Part shown: positions 11,807-31,901 of the stretch, piece after piece
Position numbering within the stretch: the stretch's first letter is position 1
How the letters are laid out: each line of letters begins with the position of its first letter
Virus record (IMG/VR): IMGVR_UViG_3300021964_000099
Location: 1-52,274 of that record
DNA length: 52,274 bases
Strand: one strand, 5' to 3'
Source: a virus
Lineage: Duplodnaviria; Caudoviricetes
The notes under the pieces: model-generated
Databases searched by the model: none
Told to the model about the DNA's origin: nothing
What the model saw: only the letters and a program-made list of their open reading frames with translations
Made by a program: the position numbers and the translations under genes

Positions 11807-12096
11807 TATGTTTTTCTTGATGCTCCCCAACCTTTGGTTGTTAGCATTTTATTTTTATTCTTGTGGACAGATCCACCGCCCATATATCCTTTTACTTCTC
11901 CGCCTTTAGCATAGTTTCCTTTACCACCTTTACCGGGAATAACTACATCTCTTTTAGGTTTAATTTTAAGTTTAGGTTTAATAGGATTTTCTTGACTATA
12001 TTCCTTTTCAGCAATTCTATAATCACTTTCCATTCTTTGTTTATCAGTTGTACTTTCATACCACTTTTTATATTCTTCCGGCGTCATCATATTCAT
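11806..12096 (-). CDS. Small basic protein with YAKGG/YMGGG motifs
   Basis: 96 aa, coupled to TerL stop. Confidence 0.65.
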   Translation of the reverse strand: MNMMTPEEYKKWYESTTDKQRMESDYRIAEKEYSQENPIKPKLKIKPKRDVVIPGKGGKGNYAKGGEVKGYMGGGSVHKNKNKMLTTKGWGASRKT

Positions 12097-13538
12097 TAGT
12101 AGTACTCCCTTGGTTCCGTGATCCGTGGTTCATCGTAGTAGTCATCGGGGAGTTTGACAAAGTTGCCTTGACGGTATCGCATGAGCGCTTGTGTTGTTGA
12201 GTCAACATAATCGTCATGGTCGCCAAAAGGAAAAGCTGCACACTCCTCTATAACGTCCTGTGCCCATCGTTCATCCGGACACCATACTTGGCCCGATTCA
12301 AACATAGGGGCTACTGAGTTTACCCGAACATGTTTATCGTTCCCTCGACTTGGTGTAAAGTTTACAACAGGTATACCTGCTGATCTTAACTCATCTGTCA
12401 ACGGAAGTCCAGAAGCTTTTGCTTCTACAATAACTGTTTCCGGTTCCCAGTATTTATATTTATCCATAGCAATTTTTTTGAGCTCTGTAAACTCCCATCT
12501 TCCTTTTTCTGCATCTAAAAGTATTATTTGAGGGTTTCCCTTACTTGGGTGACTGAACACGCCCCATGTAGTAATCGCGCTATAGTCCGCTGTTTCTTTT
12601 TTACTGAACGCTGTATCATAACTTTGGATGACATGAATCAAGTCCGGTACTTCATCTTCTTCCCATATTTGCCACCACTCACGTTTCAATATAGAGCCCT
12701 CTTCGGCGGTAGGATTTTGCTGCCACTGGGCTTGCCACTTTTGTTCTGTTAAGGAAGCACGGGTCGCGGTCAATGAATCAATGTCCCAGTACTCTGGCCA
12801 AATAGGTTTATTACTTGGTAATATCGCCGGGAACTCAATAAGCTCCCACTGGTCTGCCTTGGGTTCTTTTGCTTGAGCGTCAATCAATCTGCCTGTCAAA
12901 TCTTTCACGGACCACCGGGTCATAACAATAACGATAGCACCGCCCGGCTGTAGACGTTGTCTAGGTCCAGAGGTATACCATTCATACGCACTGTCAAAAG
13001 CTGTTTCGGATAGGGCGTCTTGCTCGGAGTGCGGGTCATCAATGATCAATAAGTCTGCACCACGGCCCGTGATACTTGAACCAACGCCCGCTGCAAAATA
13101 CTCGCCGCCTTTGTTTGTTTCCCAACGGCCTGCCGCTTTACTGTCCGCGGATATCGAAACTTGGTCAAAGACTTGCTGGTAGACTTGACTGTCAATAAGG
13201 TTCTTCATCTTACGTCCAAACCTTACGGCAAGTTCTGTATTGTGTGTGGTTTGAATTATCTTGAGTGTAGGTTTATTGCCAACTAACCAAGATGGAAATA
13301 AGAAAGAAGCAAACTCTGACTTTGTATGTCTAGGTGGCATATTGACAATCAAACGCTTGATTTTACCATCCCGTATGTCCTCAAATTTTTTTGCAATTTT
13401 TTTGTGATGATAACCGGAGACAAAGTCTGGCCAAACATGTCTGACAAAAGGTATGAAGCCTTTTTCAGCAGCATCTAGCTTTTTTAAATGTTCTTGAATT
13501 AGTTGTTCTTGAAGTTGAACTTCAGTTTGAGAAACCAT
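12096..13538 (-). CDS. terL: Terminase large subunit
   Basis: Walker A-like NMPPRHTKS, Walker B LLIIDDP, VMTRW coupling motif, RNase H nuclease YDTA...FPFGDHDDYVD. Confidence 0.95.
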   Translation of the reverse strand: MVSQTEVQLQEQLIQEHLKKLDAAEKGFIPFVRHVWPDFVSGYHHKKIAKKFEDIRDGKIKRLIVNMPPRHTKSEFASFLFPSWLVGNKPTLKIIQTTHNTELAVRFGRKMKNLIDSQVYQQVFDQVSISADSKAAGRWETNKGGEYFAAGVGSSITGRGADLLIIDDPHSEQDALSETAFDSAYEWYTSGPRQRLQPGGAIVIVMTRWSVKDLTGRLIDAQAKEPKADQWELIEFPAILPSNKPIWPEYWDIDSLTATRASLTEQKWQAQWQQNPTAEEGSILKREWWQIWEEDEVPDLIHVIQSYDTAFSKKETADYSAITTWGVFSHPSKGNPQIILLDAEKGRWEFTELKKIAMDKYKYWEPETVIVEAKASGLPLTDELRSAGIPVVNFTPSRGNDKHVRVNSVAPMFESGQVWCPDERWAQDVIEECAAFPFGDHDDYVDSTTQALMRYRQGNFVKLPDDYYDEPRITEPREYY

Positions 13539-13761
13539 TATGAAAAATTTTATATAATATTTTTATGGGATAATCAATATTTTCATTCGTACAGATTTAG
13601 GGGTGTGGGTATGTCTGGATTAGTGTTACGCGCAACTATGTAGGAGTCCCATTATACTATTTAGGGGGGCCCCCGAAGGGGGTGCGACCTTTTGCCATAC
13701 CATATGTAGTATGCACCAAGATCCTATCTACTAGATATAGTACCCCCCGAAGGGGGGCGAG

Positions 13762-13770
13762 TTATCCACA
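13762..13770 (+). promoter_or_regulatory. DnaA box
   Basis: Perfect TTATCCACA. Confidence 0.55.
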
Positions 13771-13875
13771 GCCACTAGATATGGTACACGGACCGCGAAG
13801 CGGGCCACAAGATGTAGTATGTCCAGACCAAAAAAAACACCCCCCGAAGGGGGTGCGACACTATGTCACATTGAC

Positions 13876-14052
13876 TTAGTTTATATAGAGATCCTTATCT
13901 TGCCAATAAAATTTAGAAGAATCATAGTCATACTTATTTAAGACAAGAAGCAAATTAGATTTAGTAACTTGAATATATGCGCCATCTTCTTCGCTAATCA
14001 TTACCCAAGCAAAAACCATGTCAGCTTTTTTAATCATTTGTTTCACGGTCAT
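13876..14052 (-). CDS. Small early hypothetical protein embedded in the repeat array
   Basis: AGAAAGGA RBS before ATG at 14052 (MTVKQ...). Confidence 0.6.
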   Translation of the reverse strand: MTVKQMIKKADMVFAWVMISEEDGAYIQVTKSNLLLVLNKYDYDSSKFYWQDKDLYIN

Positions 14053-14137
14053 ATTATCCTTTCTGTTTTTCATATCCTATCTTTATAGGATAATATAAGA
14101 TGCGTAAACTATATAATTATCGTAACTTATAATTAAC

Positions 14138-14146
14138 TGTGGATAA
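14138..14146 (-). promoter_or_regulatory. DnaA box
   Basis: TGTGGATAA, the reverse complement of TTATCCACA. Confidence 0.55.
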
Positions 14147-14438
14147 CTTTATTTATACCAGACCTAGTACCCCCCGAAGGGGGGCTGCGACAATTGGTCA
14201 CATTGACACAATATGTGGTACGTGGAACGCGGAGCGTGGCACAAGATGTAGTATGCCCCCGAAGGGGGCTGCGACGTTATGTCACATTGACACAAGATAT
14301 AGATCCCCCGAAGGGGGTGCGACATATTGTCACATACTAGATGTAGTAGGTCAACGGATCATGGACATACCACCAGTAGTACCCCGAAGGGGTGCGACAA
14401 TTTGTCACATTGACATTTTGATTGATCTATGATCGCGG

Positions 14439-14831
14439 TTATTTCTTCGCGGTTAAAAAATCTAATAATAGATGATATGATCGCGGTTCAAATTCTAAGG
14501 AACATGGATAATCAAAACCATTTTTTAAGAGTTCCCGCCCTTTGTCACCGTCGTATAGTTTTATGATCTTGCGTCGCGGTGCTTGGACAATATAAAAGTT
14601 ATTAGGATTATTTGAAAAGTTCTTATAATTCCAAGATATTTGTAAGGGGCTAATATTAATTCTATTTTGTTTTATTATTGTTTTACACTCTAACCAGAAA
14701 GAAAAACCATTATAAACGCCGTATAAATCGGGTATTCCCCCGCCGTGTCTGTTTTCAATTCTTGACCAGAATACCTGTTTTAATTCTCTAAATATCTGTT
14801 TATAGAAAAGCGTTTCGGGTTTTGTAGACAT
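14439..14831 (-). CDS. VRR-NUC/Holliday junction resolvase-like PD-(D/E)XK nuclease
   Basis: E..F...RIEN..G.GIPD...FWLECK...SPLQ..W. Confidence 0.75.
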   Translation of the reverse strand: MSTKPETLFYKQIFRELKQVFWSRIENRHGGGIPDLYGVYNGFSFWLECKTIIKQNRINISPLQISWNYKNFSNNPNNFYIVQAPRRKIIKLYDGDKGRELLKNGFDYPCSLEFEPRSYHLLLDFLTAKK

Positions 14832-14861
14832 AAAAAAACCCGCTAATTATAGCGGGCTTTT
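14832..14861. terminator. Bidirectional intrinsic terminator
   Basis: A7-CCCGCTA-N-TAGCGGG-CTTTT. Confidence 0.6.
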
Positions 14862-14881
14862 GTAGATTGTAAAAAGATTAA

Positions 14882-15181
14882 TTAGAAGTTTTGTATTATT
14901 AATCTTTCAGTTCCAACGACGGGAATTATAGAAGTGTTGTTTTCTAAATCTTGAATAGTTTCAATAGAGTTATAATTTTCTATTATTTCTTGAAGGTTTT
15001 CATATTCTGAATATTCGCAAGCAAAAGCGACGGGATCAAAATTAAATTCTGTGCCTTGATCTTCTTCTAAGTCTACCAAATAATCATATAGACTTGAAAG
15101 CCCTTCAATAGAAAAATTATTCTTATATTGAGAATTTAGAAACCAATTTCTAAAATAATAAGTATCAATAGTATTTTTCAT
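14882..15181 (-). CDS. Acidic early hypothetical protein
   Basis: 99 aa, NFS.EGL..LYDYL..LEE..G...FDPVA..CEYSEY; own promoter and AGAAAGGA RBS. Confidence 0.7.
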   Translation of the reverse strand: MKNTIDTYYFRNWFLNSQYKNNFSIEGLSSLYDYLVDLEEDQGTEFNFDPVAFACEYSEYENLQEIIENYNSIETIQDLENNTSIIPVVGTERLIIQNF

Positions 15182-15238
15182 ATTATTATTATCCTTTCTT
15201 AATATGTTTATATCAAAATATAGGATTTTCTCAAGCGT

Positions 15239-15279
15239 AAAAAAACCCCTGTTATAAGGTCACATTATAACAAGGGTTA
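15239..15279 (-). terminator. Intrinsic terminator after the DUF932-like gene
   Basis: Imperfect stem CCC(T)TGTTATAA...TTATAACAGGGG followed by T7 on the - strand. Confidence 0.55.
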
Positions 15280-15304
15280 TTAATTAAACCGTGATAAACT
15301 TATT

Positions 15305-16354
15305 TTATACGGCTAGTTCTAAGGCTGTATTCATAGCATTAGTTTTAATATTACCTTTTCCATTAGTGAAAAAGTTATTTTTTAAACGGCTTGACACTTG
15401 ATCAACACCGCCCCTTAAATGATCTTCATTATAAGTTACACAATTAAACGCTTTCCAATAAGTGTCTTTTCTTGCGTGATTGCCTGTATTTTGTAACTTA
15501 AAAGTTTTACCATTAGTTTCTATAGTATCGTGAAAAACCCCATAACATCTTTTAATATTGGTAATGTTTGAGCCTTCTAGATCATTCAATGAATTATATT
15601 CCATTGATGATTTTTGAAAGTCACCCAATAGTTTTGGATTATAAACAAGAATAAAATATTTCAATAAATCGCTTTCTTTTATCTGTTTATTGTCAAGGGT
15701 TTTTGCTTGTTCTGAATATTCTTGATTGCTTTTAAGAGCCGTATCAATTTTGGATTTTACCAAGTTTTCAAATTCAGTTGAAAATTCTATTCTATGGCTA
15801 ATTCCTATTTTAAATTGGCTGTTATCTTTTAAAGCATTCATAAAAGTATTAGAACACCACACAGAAATATTAGTTGTCAAAATAGATGACTTGTCACGCC
15901 CTGTATGAAAGTTATTAAACATTATATAAGACTTTACAACATCATCGCCAATATTAAACTGACCGTTTGTTTTTGCTAAGAAAGTGACATATTTATCTCT
16001 ATCGTAGCTAAAAGCATGTTCAAATTTGATACCTGTATTTCTAGCAACATGATCGCCAATTCTAGCGATCTGATCATTTTGCATAGGGTGATAGCTATCT
16101 GTTAAACCAGACACTAAAACTTCTTGATCATCTTTTACTAAAGAAAAAAACTTATCACTTTTTACTAATTCATTAGCAATAGTATTTCCACCTTTAGCAA
16201 ATAATACGGGTTTCATTTCAACATTCCAATCTAAATTGGCATTGTTCATAAGTTGAGAACAATTTAAATTTTGATCAACAGCGTTAAATTGGTTAAGCCC
16301 TTTTCCTGTTAAATCTAAAAGGCTTGACCACTCATAATTTTTTACTTCTTTCAT
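15305..16354 (-). CDS. DUF932 family phage/plasmid protein
   Basis: A.LDW.V...Y.PMQN...N.H.G......T.ISVWC.NT...I.H...T.WKAFN.VT...DH pattern; start at 16354 after RBS. Confidence 0.7.
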   Translation of the reverse strand: MKEVKNYEWSSLLDLTGKGLNQFNAVDQNLNCSQLMNNANLDWNVEMKPVLFAKGGNTIANELVKSDKFFSLVKDDQEVLVSGLTDSYHPMQNDQIARIGDHVARNTGIKFEHAFSYDRDKYVTFLAKTNGQFNIGDDVVKSYIMFNNFHTGRDKSSILTTNISVWCSNTFMNALKDNSQFKIGISHRIEFSTEFENLVKSKIDTALKSNQEYSEQAKTLDNKQIKESDLLKYFILVYNPKLLGDFQKSSMEYNSLNDLEGSNITNIKRCYGVFHDTIETNGKTFKLQNTGNHARKDTYWKAFNCVTYNEDHLRGGVDQVSSRLKNNFFTNGKGNIKTNAMNTALELAV

Positions 16355-16427
16355 AAAATTACTTCTTTCTGTGACCATGAAAATATCTTTATAGGATTTT
16401 ATAGGATAATGCAAGCGTTAAATTAAT

Positions 16428-16457
16428 ATAGCCCCGACGAATTCGGGGCTATTTTTA
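16428..16457. terminator. Intrinsic terminator hairpin
   Basis: ATAGCCCCGA-N-TCGGGGCTAT-TTTT. Confidence 0.55.
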
Positions 16458-16552
16458 CGATTGATATTAAAGGAAATAATTATTTTTAGCTTTCAACCGT
16501 AAAACCTTTTTTTGGTAAGTCGCCGTTATTTATAGCCGTTTGTATAACTAGT

Positions 16553-17257
16553 TCAGACATCAAGCACAAACCCCGAATAATCATTTTTAGCTTTACCTTT
16601 AGCAACCAAACCCGCTATAATATTGTGACCGTCTAAAAATCTAAGATCATTTTGATCTGCATTAATAACTTTGTAACCGTTAAATTTTCTAGGCAAATCT
16701 TTTCTAAATACTGCTGATATATTGCCACCTTTTTTTAGAATATCAAAAGCTTGTTTTTTATTATCTTCATTTAAACTATATGTAAGATGATAATTTCTAG
16801 GAAGTTGACCATTAACAAATTTTAACGCCCTTTTATAAATCTTTGTGTAGTCATACCATTGAATACTTTTATATTCCTCAATTAAACCTGTATTTTCCCA
16901 TGATATATCGGAAGTTCCATTTAATCTGATACACGGTGTTAAATTTTTTGCTTTAGCTTTTACAATAAATGCGTCTATTTCTTTTCTTAATTGATCTAAA
17001 AAGGTTTTTCTTTCTTGTATATACCACCTAGTTTTATTGATACGACCTTGTTTAACACTATTAAAAGCACCATGACCCGCCGTATACAAACACGCCTTTT
17101 TGCAACCTTCACTAGCCATAGAACAAACATTAAAACCAGATTGAGTTGAAGGGGCTAAGTATAATATAGCCGTGATAAAACCGTATTTTTGACCTTTTAC
17201 AGTTTTTGCGTTGTTATCGATATTAAGTAATTTTTTTGATTTTACGAATTCTAACAT
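16553..17257 (-). CDS. Gp88-like Cys-cluster (radical-SAM-like) phage protein
   Basis: NVC..AS.GC...CL..AG.G, RLNGTSDI.W, YDYTK, NYHLTYS, DLRFLD, GL.AKG.A motifs. Confidence 0.7.
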   Translation of the reverse strand: MLEFVKSKKLLNIDNNAKTVKGQKYGFITAILYLAPSTQSGFNVCSMASEGCKKACLYTAGHGAFNSVKQGRINKTRWYIQERKTFLDQLRKEIDAFIVKAKAKNLTPCIRLNGTSDISWENTGLIEEYKSIQWYDYTKIYKRALKFVNGQLPRNYHLTYSLNEDNKKQAFDILKKGGNISAVFRKDLPRKFNGYKVINADQNDLRFLDGHNIIAGLVAKGKAKNDYSGFVLDV

Positions 17258-17378
17258 TTTTATTCTTTCTCTTTTTCATTTTACCTGTAATACCTTTGCC
17301 ACGATCACTATAAACATTTTGCGTATAATAGTAATCGGGGCTTTTAGTATCTTTGCCAAATGGATAATTACTAATCAT
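17223..17378 (-). CDS. Small basic hypothetical protein
   Basis: ORF track; probable start MISNY at 17378. Confidence 0.4.
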   Translation of the reverse strand: MISNYPFGKDTKSPDYYYTQNVYSDRGKGITGKMKKRKNKNVRIRKIKKIT

Positions 17379-17454
17379 AAATATCCTATTAACATGGGAG
17401 TAAATAAAAAACAAATATTAATTACTAAAACTATTAAACAAAATTTCTTAACGG

Positions 17455-17643
17455 TCATAATTCCTCTAATATTTTTTCAATGCCATTAAAAAGGTCTTGA
17501 CCTTTTTCTGTATTCATAGTTCCTTTGTTTTTGTCGTCGTCAATAAAAAATTTATCTCTTTCGAAACCGTTTAAATATTCCATAAAAAGAAAAAATATTT
17601 CGTCTGCTGTTTGAAATACAGCGTCGGGAGATAATTTACTCAT
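17455..17643 (-). CDS. Hypothetical early protein
   Basis: 62 aa, ATGA overlap with upstream gene. Confidence 0.6.
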   Translation of the reverse strand: MSKLSPDAVFQTADEIFFLFMEYLNGFERDKFFIDDDKNKGTMNTEKGQDLFNGIEKILEEL

Positions 17644-17915
17644 TTGTTTACAACCTCGCTTATATCTTCAACTCTATCCCTAATACCTCTTAGACTATCA
17701 TTGATATCTTGACGGTCTGAATATTTTCTTGAATATTGATCATCATCTAAATAATTATTTAATATTCTGATTGCGTGGGTTAAATGTAAATCTAAAATTT
17801 TAACATTATAACCTTTTGATTTTGAAAAATGAACGGTGTCAAATTCTAAAACGTCGTAAGGGATAGCCCTATCCTCAACTATTTTTTGTATCTCTAATAA
17901 ATCTTTTAGTTTCAT
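17640..17915 (-). CDS. Hypothetical early protein
   Basis: 91 aa, AGAAAGGA RBS. Confidence 0.65.
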   Translation of the reverse strand: MKLKDLLEIQKIVEDRAIPYDVLEFDTVHFSKSKGYNVKILDLHLTHAIRILNNYLDDDQYSRKYSDRQDINDSLRGIRDRVEDISEVVNK

Positions 17916-18136
17916 TGTTATCCTTTCTAATTTTGGTAAGTATCAGTTTTGCTGTGGAAACGGCTTAGTAGCCCAGTATTATTCAGCTTTCTTCCTGTAT
18001 TTTTCTTCCTTCAACTGATACTTATTTATCCTATTATCATGGGAGAAGAATTTAGTCAAGTCTTTTTTTACTTCATCAAAACTAAACTTTTCTACTTTGA
18101 TATTATTATCACGGTCACGGTATACTCTAGTTATAG

Positions 18137-18418
18137 TCATTTTATTAAACACCCATTTTCAAAAAAGTATTTTGCATTTTTATCAATGCTCTCTTTTATT
18201 GTTTTGTATTTATTCACGGTGTCTTTATCACAAGACCAACAAAGAGATATTTTATATAAATCATCAACAGGATAATCTAACAATTTTTTTAAAAAATTAA
18301 TTAATGTTTTTTCATTTCGTAGACTTTCTTTTGGAAGGGAACAATCAAACCAATCTTGATCATGATTGTTAAAAGAGGCTATAACATTTAATTTTAAATC
18401 TTTTATTGTATTATTCAT
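18137..18418 (-). CDS. Hypothetical early protein
   Basis: 93 aa, ATGA overlap with the GcrA-like gene. Confidence 0.6.
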   Translation of the reverse strand: MNNTIKDLKLNVIASFNNHDQDWFDCSLPKESLRNEKTLINFLKKLLDYPVDDLYKISLCWSCDKDTVNKYKTIKESIDKNAKYFFENGCLIK

Positions 18419-18618
18419 AATATTGCTCTTTCTTTTTTTCTCGTATACTTTGAGAATGGGTCGGGTGTATATCCGTTCATAACTTTCTCACGGTAAAATT
18501 GTCCTATCACAGAATTTTTTGATCTATGCAACATTTTCCCAACGGTTGCGTAAGAATGTTTTTTTAATAATTGTCTTGCTAATTCTGTTTCATTTTCTGT
18601 CCATTTTTTTCTTTTCAT
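18415..18618 (-). CDS. GcrA-like N-terminal HTH protein
   Basis: WTE.E......L....SY..VG..L..SKNSVIG..YR resembles the GcrA N-terminus WTDERV...S...IA..LG.SRNAVIGK.HR. Confidence 0.6.
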   Translation of the reverse strand: MKRKKWTENETELARQLLKKHSYATVGKMLHRSKNSVIGQFYREKVMNGYTPDPFSKYTRKKERAIL

Positions 18619-18852
18619 TCTATCCCTTTCTCTTGCGACATTATGTCACGTTGACAGTTATTTAGTACAGGACTTATCCGAATAACTCCGTCGCCTGTAC
18701 AATTTGTCGACTTGCCGTTTTTATAGTAGTTGCAATACGACTACTCTTGTTGATAGACAAGATAAAGCTAGTCAAACGGATAAAACAGTCTATCTTTGTT
18801 TTTTCGAAAATCCCTGCTTTCTTTATCTACTTATCCCATTAAATAATATAAA

Positions 18853-18864
18853 TTGACATGTCAA
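18853..18864. promoter_or_regulatory. Back-to-back -35 boxes at the divergence point of early genes
   Basis: Palindrome TTGACA-TGTCAA; genes run leftward below 18620 and rightward above 18900. Confidence 0.5.
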
Positions 18865-18901
18865 TAACAAAATGATAAAAAATAAAAAAGAAAGGAAAAC
18901 T

Positions 18902-19099
18902 ATGAATAGATCAGAAGTAATTAATTCATATGTAGAAGAATTAGACTTATACAAAGAATATCGTCACGCTTACGATAAAGCAACAGAACTAGAATTTTTT
19001 GATAAGCAACAAGAAGCAGATTATTATTATGAATATGCACAACAATTAAAAAAGAAAATTGACAATGGAGAAACCATTCTTTACAAAGTTAATTTTTAG
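18902..19099 (+). CDS. Hypothetical early protein
   Basis: AGAAAGGA RBS then ATG at 18902. Confidence 0.65.
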   Translation: MNRSEVINSYVEELDLYKEYRHAYDKATELEFFDKQQEADYYYEYAQQLKKKIDNGETILYKVNF

Positions 19100-19443: not shown

Positions 19444-19580
19444 CACTAGAAGAATTATATTGGTGGAGAGTTGAGAGACTATGGACTATGTATAACAGCA
19501 TTACAAACGATGAAGTTTATAAGTCTATGTGGGAAAGAAAATTAAAAGAATTATTACTGAGGGGGTTTCGTGGACAATGA
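19440..19580 (+). CDS. Small hypothetical protein (46 aa; not in ORF track)
   Basis: MTLEELYWWRVERLW...; GGAG RBS, ATGA overlap. Confidence 0.55.
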   Translation: MTLEELYWWRVERLWTMYNSITNDEVYKSMWERKLKELLLRGFRGQ

Positions 19581-19764
19581 TTTTGAATTACCAGATTACT
19601 ATAATACAAGTAAACCAAAAGAAGAAAAGCAAGATTTAGTTAAGAGAAAATGCTTTGCTTGTAATAAAGAAAAAGCTATGGGCAAGTTTGAGAGATATTG
19701 TAGTGATAGTTGCAGATCAAGAGCTACAAAGAATTATCAAGCACCAAACAGTATACGGTGGTAA
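19570..19764 (+). CDS. Small Zn-finger protein
   Basis: RKCFAC...RYCSDSC. Confidence 0.6.
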   Translation: MDNDFELPDYYNTSKPKEEKQDLVKRKCFACNKEKAMGKFERYCSDSCRSRATKNYQAPNSIRW

Positions 19765-19814: not shown

Positions 19815-20315
19815 TTATTCTGCTTCTTCTATCTCTTTGATCTCTTTGATCTCTACACCGATAGCTTCACCGTTGATAACATTATGATCTCTAATCTCTT
19901 TGAGTTTAGCTTCAAGTTCTGGTCTAGTCATGTTATCAAGTGAGGCTGTCACAACTTCTTTACGATCAATATAAAAACCCGCAAGTTGACCGCGACGATA
20001 TTCGGCATTTATTGCAGGCCCCATTTGTCCATTAGTTACAGCGATATCACGCAACCGTGACAATTCTCTAGAGTGTTTTACAAAATCTAACTTACTAGCT
20101 TCTGCATATTCACGCTGTAGATTTTCTATAGCTTCTACAACTTTAGGGAAATACTTGGGATTTCTTAGATTACAAGCCTGTGTGACAGCAGATTTCTCTG
20201 AATAACCCGCCTGTCTTGCACATTCTGTCTGTGTAAGTCTTCCGTTTTCTTTGACAAATATTTCTACAAAGGCTCTTTGTTTAGGTGTTAGCTCACCATT
20301 TCTAGTCTTAGGCAT
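19815..20315 (-). CDS. terS: Terminase small subunit
   Basis: LTPKQRAFV......N...TQ..CAR.AGYS..SA...A..L HTH pattern of TerS, followed by helical oligomerisation region. Confidence 0.75.
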   Translation of the reverse strand: MPKTRNGELTPKQRAFVEIFVKENGRLTQTECARQAGYSEKSAVTQACNLRNPKYFPKVVEAIENLQREYAEASKLDFVKHSRELSRLRDIAVTNGQMGPAINAEYRRGQLAGFYIDRKEVVTASLDNMTRPELEAKLKEIRDHNVINGEAIGVEIKEIKEIEEAE

Positions 20316-20416: not shown

Positions 20417-20581
20417 GTTACGTTTGGTTACGTATAGGTTACGTGGTCAAAGTAACGATATTATTGTTATATTTCAATGAATTATTGCTATGGTTACGTG
20501 GTTACGTCATATTTGTAAAAATAAAAATTATTTTTTTTTATTTTAAAATAAAATTACTATACAGAGTGAAAGTTATCCACA
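20417..20581. repeat. GTTACGT iteron cluster + AT-rich tract + DnaA box (candidate origin or pac region)
   Basis: GTTACGT at 20417, 20427, 20438, 20493, 20501; inverted GTAAC at 20452; AT-rich 20509-20560; TTATCCACA at 20573. Confidence 0.6.
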
Positions 20582-20648
20582 ACTTTTAACATTTAATCTT
20601 ATTTAGTTCTTTATTATCCCATGTATTAGTTTATTAATATAATTAAAT

Positions 20649-20829
20649 GAGGATGTTGCAACATTCTCGGAGTATGGCTGAACAACTGTAACAAGGTAGT
20701 AAGGCACAGTTCTCACAAAGTATGGTCGAATGACTGAGAGTGTGGGGGTTGGTACTGAAGTACTGGTTAATCCATATCAGATTGACTTGTCGGGAAAAGG
20801 TTGGGGGTAGTCAAAGAATCCCCCTACTC
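20649..20829 (+). ncRNA. Candidate multi-stem structured RNA (~180 nt)
   Basis: Follows TATAAT at 20638; at least six stems with G-U pairs on the + strand; ends before the RBS of 20851. Confidence 0.55.
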
Positions 20830-23686: not shown

Positions 23687-23885
23687 CAAAGTTTTCCGGG
23701 TTTTTAAATTCTCTTTCGTGTTGCTCCCACAAACGGCGACCTTCGCCGTAAGAATATAACCATTCATTCACAGTAAATTCTTTCGTGGTCCCGTCTGTGT
23801 AGGACACAATCACTTTATCTTGTACTCGTCTTACTGCACTAACTATTCGTTGTTTTTTCATTAGCTTTCGCGATCTGCTCTGCAA
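23679..23885 (-). CDS. Hypothetical protein
   Basis: ORF track; part of an overlapping minus-strand chain. Confidence 0.55.
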   Translation of the reverse strand: MQSRSRKLMKKQRIVSAVRRVQDKVIVSYTDGTTKEFTVNEWLYSYGEGRRLWEQHEREFKNPENFDG

Positions 23886-24126
23886 AGTAAACTGATTTTA
23901 TATCTTTGACAGCATCTTTAATGTGTACTTTCTCCAATATAATGTTCTTTAACTCTTCAATATGATCTGCATGATCATGATCTTTACTCGTAATGTATGC
24001 CGGTGCATTTGTCAAAAGCACTTCTTTAGCTTCAAGTTCGGATAACTCTCCACTTAATTTATTCAAAACGGCTGTATACAGCGCTGCCTTGATTCTTCTA
24101 TCATTAGTGTCTGACATCTTTATCAT
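23839..24126 (-). CDS. Hypothetical helical protein
   Basis: ORF track; DH.DHIEEL motif. Confidence 0.6.
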   Translation of the reverse strand: MIKMSDTNDRRIKAALYTAVLNKLSGELSELEAKEVLLTNAPAYITSKDHDHADHIEELKNIILEKVHIKDAVKDIKSVYFAEQIAKANEKTTNS

Positions 24127-25212: not shown

Positions 25213-27068
25213 GAGGGTCCTATCTCTGCATCAACTTTCAAAGGTACTTTAAGTTCTACGGTATTCTCCATAACTTCTTTGATCCGTGTTGCTTGTTCCG
25301 GGTTCTCAATAGAACAGTTTAATTCATCGTGTACCTGTATGTGAGAAACAATGCCCTCTTCATATAGATCAACCATCGCCTTCTTTGTCATATCAGCCGA
25401 TGATCCTTGTATCAATCTGTTCAATGCTTTGTATGTCCATGCTCTCTTTAGATCACGTCCATATTCTTTTTCTGCTTCCCACAGTGGCAATGCTTTATGT
25501 ATACCAAATGCTCTTGGCTCCCATAAATCAAAACGACACTTACGGCCTAGCAGTGTGCGTAAGAAACCAACATTATCAGCTTTGCGTGTTGCTTGTTCCA
25601 TGAGCTGTTTTACAAAGGGAACGTTCGCATGAAACTTAGCGAATAAATCTTCGGTCTCGTCTCTATCTAAACCTAACTCGCTAGATAGTTTACCTTTACC
25701 CATACCGTACATCATACCAAGATTGATTGTCTTGGCTGTACGCCGGTCAATGCCGGCCATATCGGCGACAGCTTGATGAAAGTCGGGATCTTCTGTCTTA
25801 TAAGACTCGATGACCTCGTCGGCGCCTTTCAAGCCACCGCCGGTAAGCGCGGCGAAGTGGACAAGAACTCTCGGTTCCTGTTGGCTATAGTCAAATGACC
25901 CCCACTTGCAACCCTCGTCTGGGACGAAGATTGATCGTATCAACGGCCCGATATCTTTATTACGTGCAGGAATTTGTTGTAGGTTTGGATTACTATAACT
26001 GAACCGTCCTGTGACTGTTCCTCCTGTTTCACCACGCATTTGATTGATATCGGCGTGAATTCTACTGTGCGAAGAGTGTGTTAATATTGTGTCAATAAAT
26101 GTCGTGCGTGCTTTATTGAACTCTCTTGCTTGTACAACCATTTTTGCTAATGGATGTTTATGTGTTGTTAAAAAGTTTTTATCAAACTTTGGTTGCCCGG
26201 ACTTCTCAGTGCGCTCATATTTAATATTTAATTTATCAAATGCTTTTGCTACACTTACTGCGGCCCAGATATCGACATCAACACCCGTATCTTTTTTAAT
26301 TTGTGTCAGTAATGTTGTTTCTTTTTTCTGTAAATCTTTTTTTATTCTATCTGCTTTATCTAAATCAACACGTACCCCTTTTGATTTCATATCTAATAGA
26401 CATGGAAAGAGTCGTGTCTCTAAATCAAATATACTTGATAACTCTTGCTTAATTATTTCTACTTTAAAATACTGCCATAATCTTAATGTTAAGTCTGCAT
26501 CTTGTTCTGCATAAGGACCAACATACATTGCCGGAAGTTTATACATCTGTGCTTTTGCATCAACGCCCCACTCCTTCGCGGCTTCGTATAATAAAGCTTC
26601 TGACTTTGTTTCTTTGAGATAATCTTTACCAAGTTCATTTAATGAATATCTAAATCTGTTTTCATCTATAAGTGGCGCGGCAATCAAGGTATCTATAATT
26701 TTACCTTTTACTTCTACACCCCACCAACGTAACCACCCTACATCGTAAGCGGCGTTATGAAATACTTTATCACATGGTAAATCCATGATCTTTTGTACTT
26801 GACGCTTGAGTATATTCTCGTCAAAGTTACCACCACCCTCATGTCGTATAGGGAAGTAACCTTTCCAACCTTCTACAGCAATAGCAACACCGGCTATGTA
26901 GCCATTGTTGATAGCCCAACCCGGACCTTTTGTTTTAATGTCTGGATCGTATGTCTCTAAGTCAACAGCTATTTCTTTTGCTTCGGATAGATTAGGAACG
27001 GTCTCTGGTGGTGTCCACTCACTCGGTGTTTGAAATAGAGGTATCTGTGTCATCTTCTTTCCTATCAT
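25188..27068 (-). CDS. polA: DNA polymerase family A with 3'-5' exonuclease domain (Leu762 type)
   Basis: Exo DLET/HNAAYD/YA..D; TGRFS...PNLQQIP; DYSQQEPR; RRTAKTINLGMMYG; IQGSSAD; VHDEL. Confidence 0.95.
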   Translation of the reverse strand: MIGKKMTQIPLFQTPSEWTPPETVPNLSEAKEIAVDLETYDPDIKTKGPGWAINNGYIAGVAIAVEGWKGYFPIRHEGGGNFDENILKRQVQKIMDLPCDKVFHNAAYDVGWLRWWGVEVKGKIIDTLIAAPLIDENRFRYSLNELGKDYLKETKSEALLYEAAKEWGVDAKAQMYKLPAMYVGPYAEQDADLTLRLWQYFKVEIIKQELSSIFDLETRLFPCLLDMKSKGVRVDLDKADRIKKDLQKKETTLLTQIKKDTGVDVDIWAAVSVAKAFDKLNIKYERTEKSGQPKFDKNFLTTHKHPLAKMVVQAREFNKARTTFIDTILTHSSHSRIHADINQMRGETGGTVTGRFSYSNPNLQQIPARNKDIGPLIRSIFVPDEGCKWGSFDYSQQEPRVLVHFAALTGGGLKGADEVIESYKTEDPDFHQAVADMAGIDRRTAKTINLGMMYGMGKGKLSSELGLDRDETEDLFAKFHANVPFVKQLMEQATRKADNVGFLRTLLGRKCRFDLWEPRAFGIHKALPLWEAEKEYGRDLKRAWTYKALNRLIQGSSADMTKKAMVDLYEEGIVSHIQVHDELNCSIENPEQATRIKEVMENTVELKVPLKVDAEIGPSWGEINKK

Positions 27069-30136: not shown

Positions 30137-30348
30137 TTTATATTTAGCTCAGCTTCTGTTTCAATCCATACTTTAGCACCACAGCTCAATGGTTTTTCTG
30201 GCCTATAAACAACTTTTGATTCACCTAAAATAGAAACCTCGTGACAATAGGTATTTTTCTTACCTTCTTTAATCGTTATCACAGGTTCATTTGTTCCATG
30301 TTTTTTATTTGCTCTTACCTTATGCATATTAACATGTATTCTTTTCAT
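30133..30348 (-). CDS. Conserved hypothetical phage protein
   Basis: IHVN.H.IR.N.K.....PV.T.K....PLSCGA.VWIET. Confidence 0.65.
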   Translation of the reverse strand: MKRIHVNMHKVRANKKHGTNEPVITIKEGKKNTYCHEVSILGESKVVYRPEKPLSCGAKVWIETEAELNIK

Positions 30349-31901
30349 TAAAAAGGTGTCTCCTCACTCATGTCTGGAGTATCAAACTCATCAGTGCTTT
30401 TTCTAATCCAAGGTACATACCAAAGATAAGCTGTCTTACCTTTTATTTTTCTTCTTACATCTCCGCCGTTCAATTTACTTCTAATATGTGCCAACATCTC
30501 TGTAGCAGTAAAATCTTTAAAATCATTTCTTTTCAAGAACTTATGTAACCATTCTGATTTAAAATATGCAGTGTCCCTATTTACTTTACCTTCTTTTTCT
30601 TCGTATTCTCTTTCTTGAAACAATGCTTTACCCATATCTACTTCATCTATGTGTTCTGCTGAACCTTGATCTTCTAAGAAACGTTCAAGTAAAGTTTCAA
30701 ATCTACCTGTCTTTGTAATCTCATGCGGCATCTGTATAACAACAACAGTTTCCATTAACATTTGCATTCTACTGTCCCAATCAGCCGGTCTCATCATGTT
30801 AGGGTAGAAATTTATTGCATTCATACACGCTTGTCTAAATTTGTGTTGATTATACAATTGATCGGTCGATAATTTTAATCTTCTACCATCTATATTTAAA
30901 AACCAAGTTGACTCATCACTTTCATATTTTGTTAAATCACTAATATCATGTTGTATTTCTGTAGCACCAACTCCATACTGTTTACCTTTACATTCTGTTT
31001 TTTGACAAACTGCACACATAGGTTGATCTTTACATTTGTATTGATAATCTTTTTTTTCATGCTGTCTTATTGTTTTAACAACTTGCTGTGCCGGTAATGG
31101 TGTTTCCATATACTTATGATTAAACTCTTCTATTTTTGCTTGCCATTCCTCCGGCCATTTTCTTTTTGCATATACTGCGTATTGGTACAATGTGTTATCT
31201 CTTCCACCCGGTGGTATGCCTTGCGACATTAATATAGATAGACAAGGTGGTCCATCTTTTAATTCAAGATCATTCTTTCTTTTTACTTTAAATTCTTTTA
31301 AACTTTTTTCGGTCGTACAATAACGATCATATAAAGCGAAGAAATCATCAAGGCTACTAGCATTACCATCGTCGCTATAGCCATGACGCATAGAATCATC
31401 ACCACCGTGATAGGGAAGATTAAGAAAGTTTCCAGTGTCTCCACGATCTGCTTGTATCTCAATTTGTTTTGGAAATATTTCACAATTTGCATAACCTAAT
31501 TCTCCTGCCCACTCCTGTAATTTATCACGCATAAGTTTAGCTTGTACAGGTTCTTTTGTAAATAAAAATACATGTGCACCACCACTCTTTGATCTACACA
31601 TAACAACTGGTAATTCTAATTCTCTTATCTTTCTTACAATTTTTTTATGATCTAATGGATATGTATCTATATCTATACAACCCCATATGCATTTTGAATC
31701 ATCACGTATTGGTATGATACCAAGACTAGGATCTTTACCCTCTATGTGGTCTATCCATAATTGATCTGTAACAGGTGCTTTTTTTATGAAAGCTTGTCCG
31801 CCTGCTTTACCATTTACTAGTTGCCCATCACTTTTATATTGACCATAGGCACGGTCCAATCCATAGAATATAGTTTTAAATTTCTTTATTCTTTCTTCCA
31901 T
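30348..31901 (-). CDS. DNA primase (AEP-like domain + primase C-terminal domain)
   Basis: WGCIDID, RSKSGG.H.F, EIFPKQ, GNFLNLPY, PPC...GGR.N.L, C...C Zn site. Confidence 0.75.
   Translation of the reverse strand: MEERIKKFKTIFYGLDRAYGQYKSDGQLVNGKAGGQAFIKKAPVTDQLWIDHIEGKDPSLGIIPIRDDSKCIWGCIDIDTYPLDHKKIVRKIRELELPVVMCRSKSGGAHVFLFTKEPVQAKLMRDKLQEWAGELGYANCEIFPKQIEIQADRGDTGNFLNLPYHGGDDSMRHGYSDDGNASSLDDFFALYDRYCTTEKSLKEFKVKRKNDLELKDGPPCLSILMSQGIPPGGRDNTLYQYAVYAKRKWPEEWQAKIEEFNHKYMETPLPAQQVVKTIRQHEKKDYQYKCKDQPMCAVCQKTECKGKQYGVGATEIQHDISDLTKYESDESTWFLNIDGRRLKLSTDQLYNQHKFRQACMNAINFYPNMMRPADWDSRMQMLMETVVVIQMPHEITKTGRFETLLERFLEDQGSAEHIDEVDMGKALFQEREYEEKEGKVNRDTAYFKSEWLHKFLKRNDFKDFTATEMLAHIRSKLNGGDVRRKIKGKTAYLWYVPWIRKSTDEFDTPDMSEETPF

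Follow-up and report, generated by a model that had tools for sequence, protein, structure and literature searches.

A lineage-specific array of composite hairpin units upstream of terL in a contig related to HTVC023P-type pelagiphages

Just upstream of terL in the viral contig IMGVR_UViG_3300021964_000099 (52,274 bases, studied entire and here called the window), between that gene and a variable region of small gene cassettes, lies an array of repeated composite units at 13670-14415. On the + strand a unit has, in order, one or two 16-mers, a hairpin, a palindrome and TTGAC(A/T), and two of the spacers between 16-mers each contain a further small hairpin. The units are kept in position and orientation, are variable in number and have different open reading frame (ORF) cassettes between them. 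The reading tentatively preferred here is that the array is a punctuation and control region of recombining units at the early/late border, similar to the PeSLs of T4-type phages, and that its protein sites would most likely bind host NrdR, DnaA and another factor.

Position, orientation and layout of the array

When viral contigs were scanned for the pattern, 44 loci came up, 28 of them with genes in common with the window. An earlier note on this DNA, made from its letters without database searches, had let its interpretation hinge on conservation in relatives. Such conservation exists: a hairpin with a G-N-A loop is present at most 1 kb upstream of terL in 21 of the 23 terL-carrying related sources, always in the same orientation as in the window and never in the opposite one. 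Members of a close clade (terL 91-99% identical) have 3-9 hairpins, the first of them 131-143 nucleotides (nts) from terL (132 nts in the window). In a distant clade (terL 64-66% identical) there are one large and one small hairpin with 2-4 palindromes, and some members have a box pair with a 15-nt spacer. HTVC027P (57,595 bases) is devoid of perfect DnaA boxes and of hairpins of this kind, and lacks the palindrome even when 2 mismatches are allowed; the array elements are likewise lacking in the stretches around terL of HTVC023P, 023Pt_psg01 and DSL-LC04.

All the elements inventoried by the earlier note are present where it placed them; what it missed is an ORF of 65 amino acids (aa) on the - strand that interrupts the array, together with the terminator-like T8 run of the hairpin at 13840. 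The features of the array, with its flanking genes and one outlying palindrome, are as follows (bit scores are for the matrix described below).

12096-13538, -: terL, which opens the leftward late/structural block (tblastn)
13670-13682, +: hairpin H1, CCCCC-GAA-GGGGG
13683-13699, +: palindrome P1, degenerate (2 mismatches)
13697-13743, +: box pair a/b, 16-mers at 13697 and 13728 with a 15-nt spacer (15.8 and 13.2 bits)
13743-13757, +: hairpin H2, C6-GAA-G6
13760-13771, +: extended DnaA-box motif AGTTATCCACAG, found in 8 related sequences
13772-13820, +: box pair c/d (13772 and 13805, 17-nt spacer)
13793-13803, +: small hairpin CCGC-GAA-GCGG, within the c/d spacer
13829-13856, -: intrinsic-terminator-like hairpin H4 (13840-13853), 3′ of the 65-aa ORF, its T8 run being on the - strand
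13854-13876, +: palindrome P2 and TTGACT
13876-14073, -: 65-aa ORF cassette within the array, without a family match
14137-14148, -: extended DnaA-box motif, overlapping the -35 of a promoter-like site of the 65-aa ORF
14155-14170, +: box e, single and degenerate
14170-14208, +: hairpin H5 (C6-GAA-G6), palindrome P3 (14186-14202) and TTGACA
14206-14254, +: box pair f/g (14206 and 14239, 17-nt spacer)
14227-14237, +: small hairpin ACGC-GGA-GCGT, within the f/g spacer
14255-14292, +: hairpin H7, palindrome P4 (14270-14286) and TTGACA
14290-14305, +: box h, single
14305-14334, +: hairpin H8 and palindrome P5 (14318-14334)
14334-14382, +: box i (14334, the highest matrix score, 16.8 bits), a 17-nt spacer and degenerate box j (14367)
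14381-14415, +: hairpin H9 (ACCCC-GAA-GGGGT), palindrome P6 (14393-14409) and TTGACA
14439-14831, -: 130-aa ORF flanking the array, with a PD-(D/E)xK nuclease motif
18634-18656, +: outlying palindrome and TTGACA, in a divergent intergenic region

Two relatives, L046 and L036, have an uninterrupted array and lack the 65-aa ORF, and the same point in the array holds different small ORFs in the window, L023, L044 and L024. Each inserted ORF lies between a T-run hairpin and a promoter-like stretch that contains a DnaA motif. In L018 the array is in three pieces with cassettes between them. Homologues of the 65-aa ORF are on the opposite strand in L018 (7171-7350, +) and L039 (373-558, +), and there the flanking hairpins keep their orientation. 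Single hairpin-plus-palindrome units are also found between cassettes further along the variable region, and unit number and order differ even between close relatives (terL 98-99% identical). A comparison with public sequencing runs, which used assembled contigs rather than reads, found unit-to-unit joints that skip a cassette in contigs of four runs; this evidence is weak (likeness set at 90, short sides) and is consistent with the assembled variants. Contigs from RNA libraries cover the array and are joined to terL up to 13780, with DNA carry-over a possibility. Many viral contigs end within the array.

Two other readings of the repeats were tried and rejected. Open frames of 60-130 codons on the + strand cross the arrays, but variation there lacks a codon pattern, and the spacings from palindrome to palindrome are spread over the three remainder classes modulo 3 (15, 5 and 10), which disposes of a protein-coding repeat. 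No known RNA family reaches its gathering score in 13000-15000, the best scores in the array being 24 bits (PyrR) and 15 bits (CRISPR-DR36).

Hairpins on the strand antisense to terL

Seven exact copies of CCCCGAAGGGG are found at 13671-14392, all on the + strand, with none elsewhere in the window and none in 100 shuffles. The seven C4-6-GAA-G4-6 hairpins of the earlier note are thereby borne out, and so are its two CGC-GRA-GCG hairpins, at 13793 and 14227. To see how general the form is, 27 related sources (260,776 bases, oriented as the contig) were surveyed for hairpins that have a loop of 3 nts and G/C pairs at the four stem positions nearest to it. There were 123 distinct ones, with the + strand loops GAA (79), GCA (5), GGA (4), GTA (1) and TTC (0), so that 89 have a G-N-A loop on the strand antisense to terL compared with none having TTC there. 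The closing pair is C:G in 88 of the hairpins with a GNA loop.

The spacer between the boxes at 13772 and 13805 is instructive. Among relatives it contains five different stems (CCGC, CCCC, CCGCG, CCCCC and GC) with GAA, GGA or GCA loops, and despite the different stems it is exactly 17 nts long in 8 of 8 sequences. Because the stem changes are compensated while the spacing is constant, it is likely that both the hairpin and the spacing are under selection.

The hairpin with the T8 run, H4, scans as an intrinsic terminator of the 65-aa ORF. It is the only one of the nine array hairpins to have a U-tract, with more examples in relatives, and any hairpin copy with a U-tract is predicted to terminate the transcript of the gene before it. 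In RNA transcribed leftward, C-run hairpins read as C-UNCG-G tetraloops; the GC-GAA-GC hairpins do not read as such. With regard to the DNA form, C-GNA-G mini-hairpins on a DNA strand are described as very stable (PMC13037366), and this point and the character of the T5 injection-stop region, both put forward in the earlier note as established, are indeed in print (PMC13037366; 10.1101/866236).

Paired 16-mers and NrdR

Eight of the array 16-mers (13697, 13728, 13772, 13805, 14206, 14239, 14290 and 14334) score 11-12 out of 16 against a generic NrdR consensus and keep the key C4 and G13; a further two, at 14155 and 14367, are degenerate. The earlier note had counted eight or nine. NrdR is present in 29 of 31 Pelagibacteraceae genomes searched, and 30 of 30 regions upstream of nrdA in that family have a near-invariant box, A(C/T)ACAACAT(A/G/C)TAGTTG, at -48 to -51, with a second box mostly 15 nts upstream of it. 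[These SAR11 loci, L183-L186 and L196-L221, make up a clean set of NrdR operators for a streamlined group.] A symmetrised matrix was built from 24 distinct SAR11 nrdA boxes, chosen by position and pattern. When all positions in the window were ranked with it, array boxes came 1st to 3rd (14334, 13697 and 13805); they filled 6 of the first 10 places and 7 of the first 19. At 8 bits or more there are 36 matches in the window, 8 of them in the array, and random sequences average 22.

NrdR is reported to bind two 16-bp boxes that are 15-16 bp apart, with 14-18 tolerated (PMC12051234), and the conserved C and G to be its key contacts (PMC9110341). Pairs with a spacer of 14-18 nts number 5 in the window, 3 of them in the array, whereas 100 shuffles average 0.99 and never exceed 3; in HTVC027P there is 1 such pair, a weak one. 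The spacers of the array pairs are 15, 17, 17 and 17 nts, and in relatives successive boxes are 15-17 nts apart in 20 of 34 distinct contexts. This in silico evidence supports the view that the array 16-mers are NrdR-like and form candidate operator pairs.

The palindrome and its candidate binder

Perfect copies of TGCGAC-N5-GTCACA start at 13854, 14186, 14270, 14318 and 14393 and a degenerate copy at 13683, each 0-1 nt past a hairpin, which settles the five or six abutting palindromes of the earlier note as five perfect and one degenerate. Outside the array there is a copy with 1 mismatch at 18634, and at up to 2 mismatches the window has 14 matches where 1.82 are expected. Among 62 distinct copies from phage relatives the left half, TGCGACA, is invariant and the right half varies (GTCACA, GTCGCA, GTCCTA, GCCACA, GACGCA) without compensating change. 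Since its arms vary in this way the palindrome is taken to be a protein site, and an RNA or DNA hairpin is ruled out. TTGAC follows in 46 of the 62 copies and a hairpin directly precedes in 45. A -10 is present 16-18 nts after TTGAC in only 5 of 56 distinct phage copies of palindrome plus TTGAC, which agrees with the observation in the earlier note that most boxes are not in front of a gene and excludes a working sigma-70 promoter for most copies.

The earlier note had labelled the palindromes RegA/PrrA boxes. They presumably fit the RegA/PrrA (RegR) consensus of inverted GC-rich pentamers five bases apart. Within 101 Pelagibacteraceae genomes the palindrome is found only on contig C20 of assembly G001, which is phage, and in one stray match, so that the label is unsupported for a SAR11 host. 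At 2 mismatches five complete Pelagibacteraceae genomes gave 12 matches and the control 11.

Further afield, one genome for each of about 200,000 bacterial species was scanned for palindrome plus TTGAC, with at least 120 matches. Among the matches listed many lie between genes; the bacteria concerned are Nitrosomonas, Pandoraea, Porticoccus and further Beta- and Gammaproteobacteria. In these the palindrome is AT-rich at its centre (AATTT in 29 of 117 distinct sites), and a -10 follows at 16-18 nts in 25 of 78 AT-centred sites compared with 2 of 39 GC-centred ones. The neighbouring or downstream genes among the matches listed encode TonB-dependent receptors, cytochrome oxidase subunit II, a redoxin, PEP-CTERM proteins and SCO1/SenC. 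One Nitrosomonas genome, not that of a presumed host, has about 10 palindrome sites where a reversed control has 0. Judged from these sites, the palindrome is a promoter-linked motif in some Beta- and Gammaproteobacteria, where some regulator probably uses it beside the -35. A chance match to a 6-base half-site somewhere among about 200,000 species would not be surprising. [Independently of the phage, TGCGACAATTTGTCGCA immediately 5′ of a TTGAC -35 has the look of an undescribed or unrecognised regulon motif in Nitrosomonas, Pandoraea, Porticoccus and other Proteobacteria (loci L049-L168, e.g. L050, L052, L062, L064, L065 and L082), and its setting points to copper or respiration control.]

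No phage-encoded binder came to light. About 60 ORFs searched against Pfam and PHROGs include no lineage-specific regulator gene, and no gene is common to the array-bearing single-cell contig C20 yet missing from HTVC027P. TerS was rejected, as it does not co-vary with the palindrome, and so was the product of a 67-aa Myb-like ORF (18415-18618), which is missing from the array-bearing L046 and L033. That ORF, whose Myb-like match is weak and sub-threshold, starts 16 nts from the outlying palindrome at 18634. In the distant clade a 7-nt tandem repeat, GCTTGNN, of up to about 9 copies adjoins palindromes (C20 at about 23850-23910 and 25645-25670; L019; L027).

The DnaA motif

The perfect DnaA 9-mer, TTATCCACA, is at 13762 on the + strand and 14138 on the - strand; these are the two perfect, oppositely oriented boxes of the earlier note. 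At up to 1 mismatch the 9-mer is not enriched in the window (18 matches, 18.3 expected). An extended 11-mer, AGTTATCCACA, is present 3 times where 0.03 are expected. In phages of this lineage it lies within or beside good sigma-70-like cassette promoters, e.g. TTGAC-N-TGTGGATAACT...TATAGT, and it also precedes the rightward operon at 20571. Eight related sequences keep the copy at 13760, which has no promoter. With only 2 boxes, one of them in a cassette promoter, the array has no box cluster of the oriC or iss kind.

Cassette and early promoters with a perfect DnaA box in or beside the -35/-10 spacer and TATCC(C/T)AT before the -10 form a family of their own (14116-14148, -; 20571-20660, +; L018 7081-7160; L044, L023, L010 and L016), the make-up of which suggests DnaA-sensitive early transcription.

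Proposed function

The account we lean to, while granting it somewhat less than an even chance, is that the array is a lineage-specific set of non-coding composite cis-elements at the border between a hyperplastic cassette region, extending from terS to terL, and the late operon that begins with terL. Each unit would comprise a C:G-closed G-N-A mini-hairpin antisense to terL, with a 17-bp operator-like palindrome and TTGAC on its 3′ side and one or two NrdR-type boxes on its 5′ side. Such units would punctuate leftward transcription, separating the early cassettes from the late genes as in the PeSL cassettes of T4-type phages, and would serve as recombination substrates for the shuffling of cassettes. 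Their protein sites would recruit host NrdR to the boxes, DnaA to AGTTATCCACA and a dimeric binder to the palindrome, so tying expression of cassettes and late genes to the state of deoxynucleotide (dNTP) supply and replication. A replicating phage genome might also soak up NrdR, to the benefit of a phage without a ribonucleotide reductase of its own.

Several points weigh against this account. The function of the array is deduced throughout from sequence. Unlike PeSLs, most units lack a -10 or a downstream gene, and from hairpin to TTGAC the units run against almost all of the genes around them. As 8 of the 9 array hairpins are without a U-tract, a terminator role is not established for those 8. 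Single 16-mers are only moderate matches, about 100 in the window scoring as well against the generic consensus, and the box pairs have neither an overlapping promoter nor an adjacent nrd gene; every NrdR site known to us lies at an nrd promoter. The host is only presumed to belong to SAR11 (Pelagibacteraceae). Finally, the lack of array elements in cultured relatives means that the array is dispensable for this phage type.

Alternative explanations

The earlier note had placed the array at the leading end of the genome and seen in it a decoy that titrates or senses host regulators of dNTP supply, redox state and replication on entry. Spelled out, the array would chiefly titrate or sense NrdR and DnaA of the host together with one more regulator, during replication or already at entry, with the hairpins as accessories; host dNTP synthesis would be derepressed and host replication control disturbed. 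Stated as a DNA sponge, multiplying phage genomes would draw NrdR and DnaA off the chromosome by means of at least four operator pairs and the DnaA motifs, an idea we regard as doubtful. Host ribonucleotide reductase would then stay on, and the extrudable G-N-A hairpins would be supercoil-dependent switches that time the availability of the sites. Much about the boxes suits a decoy: pairs of NrdR type at canonical spacing that include the best matrix matches in the genome, DnaA boxes that are perfect and conserved, sites without promoters, a copy number that varies among relatives, and a contig that (at 83% completeness) yielded no ribonucleotide reductase large subunit. Infection by the relative HTVC027P, which on the same paper's account is without nrd genes, raises host nrdAB 3-9 fold (PMC12753301), and T5-like phages are described as having an untranslated repeat region with 8 DnaA boxes (10.1101/866236). 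However, HTVC027P brings about this rise without any such array, and since the palindrome is without a counterpart in the 101 Pelagibacteraceae genomes there is nothing in a SAR11 host for that element to derepress. A decoy also leaves the strand bias of the hairpins, their use as terminators and the cassette insertions unexplained, and a leading end is unsupported, as there is no terminal repeat and both contig ends fall within genes. The probability that we attach to a decoy of this general kind is correspondingly low, about the same as for the sponge.

An origin of phage DNA replication, in which DnaA boxes, iterons and strand-specific mini-hairpins would be priming or loading sites for an AEP-type primase, is unlikely. 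Two inverted DnaA motifs do flank repeats, the stretch at 13540-13600 is AT-rich, an AEP primase gene is present at 30348-31901, and CCGAAGG-type mini-hairpins are described at the RSF1010 ssiA primase site and at G4-type origins (PMC13037366). Yet the replication genes are about 16 kb away, one of the only 2 DnaA boxes is part of a cassette promoter, units are also scattered between cassettes, and relatives with the same replication genes lack the array. A packaging region, pac or cos-like, with repeats bound by the small terminase and hairpins that mark or help the cut, is quite unlikely, even though 21 of 23 sources have the array directly upstream of terL, a PD-(D/E)xK motif is present in the adjacent 130-aa ORF, which stands beside terS in relatives, and many viral contigs end inside the array. 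Ends at repeats are the usual outcome of assembly, the ends of molecules are not readable from contigs, and units are also found several kb away; moreover the DNA-binding region of TerS is no more alike between two palindrome-bearing clades than either is to that of HTVC027P, which has no palindrome. Could the units be functionless scars, left over from repeated gain and loss of cassettes? Their number and order do differ at 98-99% terL identity, half-units without a -10 are common, and degraded half-PeSLs are described in T4-type phages (PMC4122927). We consider this very unlikely, for hairpin, palindrome and box pair persist upstream of terL at 64-66% terL identity, stem changes are compensated, the spacing stays at 17 nts although the spacer sequence changes, and orientation never flips. 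Highly improbable is a set of N4-type single-strand promoters, that is, hairpins on the template strand read by an injected or phage-made polymerase. The hairpins are on the template (+) strand of leftward genes and have 4-7 bp stems, GAA, GGA or GCA loops and a C:G closing pair, features given as requirements for extrusion of the N4 promoter hairpin (PMC4496689, PMC13037366). Against this, no A-tract or conserved start region adjoins them, several (the copies with a U-tract) act as terminators, and the ORFs scanned yielded no RNA polymerase gene, the largest being without a polymerase match and the 999-aa ORF having its closest likeness in ejection proteins. As the contig is 83% complete, absence of a polymerase gene is not proven.

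Phage type and gene surroundings

By its genes the contig, 83% complete according to CheckV, is a relative of HTVC023P-type pelagiphages. Its terL product is 61-66% identical in aa sequence to those of HTVC027P, HTVC023P, 023Pt_psg01 and DSL-LC04 (tblastn), and its genes for a portal, a small terminase, a family-A DNA polymerase, a UvrD-type helicase, an AEP primase, an SNF2 helicase, a capsid and ejection proteins are consistent with the same group. Nearly all genes are oriented leftward. No tRNA was found in the contig. This phage type is among the most abundant virus groups of the ocean, and its non-coding DNA has not been described before; the words hairpin, intergenic, promoter and palindrome are absent from PMC9599517, and "repeat" and "promoter" from a preprint.

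Contig C20, of 27 kb, has phage genes throughout (polymerase, helicase, primase, SNF2, terS and the 130-aa ORF) and comes from an assembly titled as a Pelagibacteraceae single-cell genome, which ties an array-bearing relative to SAR11. GC content agrees with this (36.7% for the window, 35.6% for C20 and 34.8% for HTVC027P). Two short contigs with the terL of this phage type and the array, L134 and L140, are in assemblies titled Nitrospinales and Planctomycetaceae, probably through mis-binning of phage DNA. The palindrome of L140 and its two DnaA boxes are directed towards terL.

From terL rightward to terS (19815-20315) the variable region consists of small, poorly conserved ORFs with a GC content of 28-31% over 15-20 kb. 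GC is 28-30% at 15000-19000, coinciding with the cassette region, and 35-44% elsewhere, and the low-GC stretch includes ORFs of the DUF932 and GP88 families. Beside terS in 10 close relatives, and at 19570-19764 (+) in the window, is a 64-aa ORF with a zinc-ribbon-like CxxC...CxxxC, a possible small nucleic-acid binder.

The 130-aa ORF next to the array has an invariant GxPD...ExK (P34, D35, E48 and K50), the pattern typical of PD-(D/E)xK nucleases. By profile search it weakly resembles 4qbo, a solved nuclease of 92 aa (E 0.04), and 1ob8, a Holliday-junction resolvase (E 0.5). In more distant relatives the ORF adjoins terS. It may perhaps be no coincidence that an enzyme which would cut junctions or cruciforms is beside nine extrudable palindromes. 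Immediately beyond the array an exact 13-nt direct repeat, TATGATCGCGGTT, at 14428-14440 and 14476-14488, and related copies of TCGCGGTT span the stop codon and 3′ end of this ORF.

Comparison with known systems

The injection-stop region (iss) of T5 is, like the array, untranslated and crowded with repeats, inverted repeats, palindromes and DnaA boxes, and binding of host DnaA has been proposed for it (10.1101/866236). In that account it has 8 DnaA boxes in a terminal repeat at a known genome end, whereas the array has 2 boxes, different repeats and another type of phage around it; the DnaA model for T5 is itself put forward as a proposal (10.1101/866236).

With the early promoters of N4 and with RSF1010 ssiA the hairpins share a C:G-closed GC stem, a G-N-A triloop and strand specificity, as those elements are described in PMC13037366 and PMC4496689. 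They differ in their flanking sequences, in being present as nine tandem copies, in that some are predicted terminators and in that no matching polymerase was found.

The datA locus of E. coli, a non-coding chromosomal site that titrates DnaA, resembles the sponge in its proposed role of holding a regulator; one protein is bound there and hairpins are absent. We know of no phage DNA sponge for NrdR, and if the array were one, no regulator-titrating decoy DNA would have been described in a phage before it.

Known NrdR operators consist of paired palindromic 16-mers, each with an AT-rich centre and with its conserved C and G nine positions apart, at a spacing of 15-17 bp, all of which the array pairs share, together with a sequence like that at SAR11 nrdA (PMC12051234, PMC9110341, PMC2892513 for the operators). 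Such operators stand before a ribonucleotide reductase operon, in most cases overlapping its promoter, and are occupied by NrdR that carries dATP and ATP. The candidate pairs of the array differ in lying away from a ribonucleotide reductase gene or promoter, in numbering four within 700 bp rather than one, and in having a GC-rich hairpin in two of the spacers. If the boxes do bind NrdR, a phage without genes for nucleotide synthesis would have a cis-acting means of coupling itself to host dNTP control, or of overriding it.

The closest described system is that of the PeSLs. In T4-type phages a stem-loop directly beside a promoter or regulator box is repeated in hyperplastic regions and next to indels, with half copies and closely spaced copies also present (PMC4122927). 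What PeSLs and PmSLs, on the description in PMC2839356 and PMC4122927, have in common with the array is that composite stem-loop repeats stand in a hyperplastic region beside indels and ORF swaps. Most array units, by contrast, are without a -10, a ribosome-binding site and a downstream gene and point away from the neighbouring genes. The array also adds paired 16-mers, has 6-9 units at one fixed place and belongs to a podovirus of another lineage. Array units share the behaviour of PeSLs while failing the promoter test that defines them. If the units do drive the exchange of cassettes, genome plasticity of the PeSL type reaches beyond the T4-type phages.

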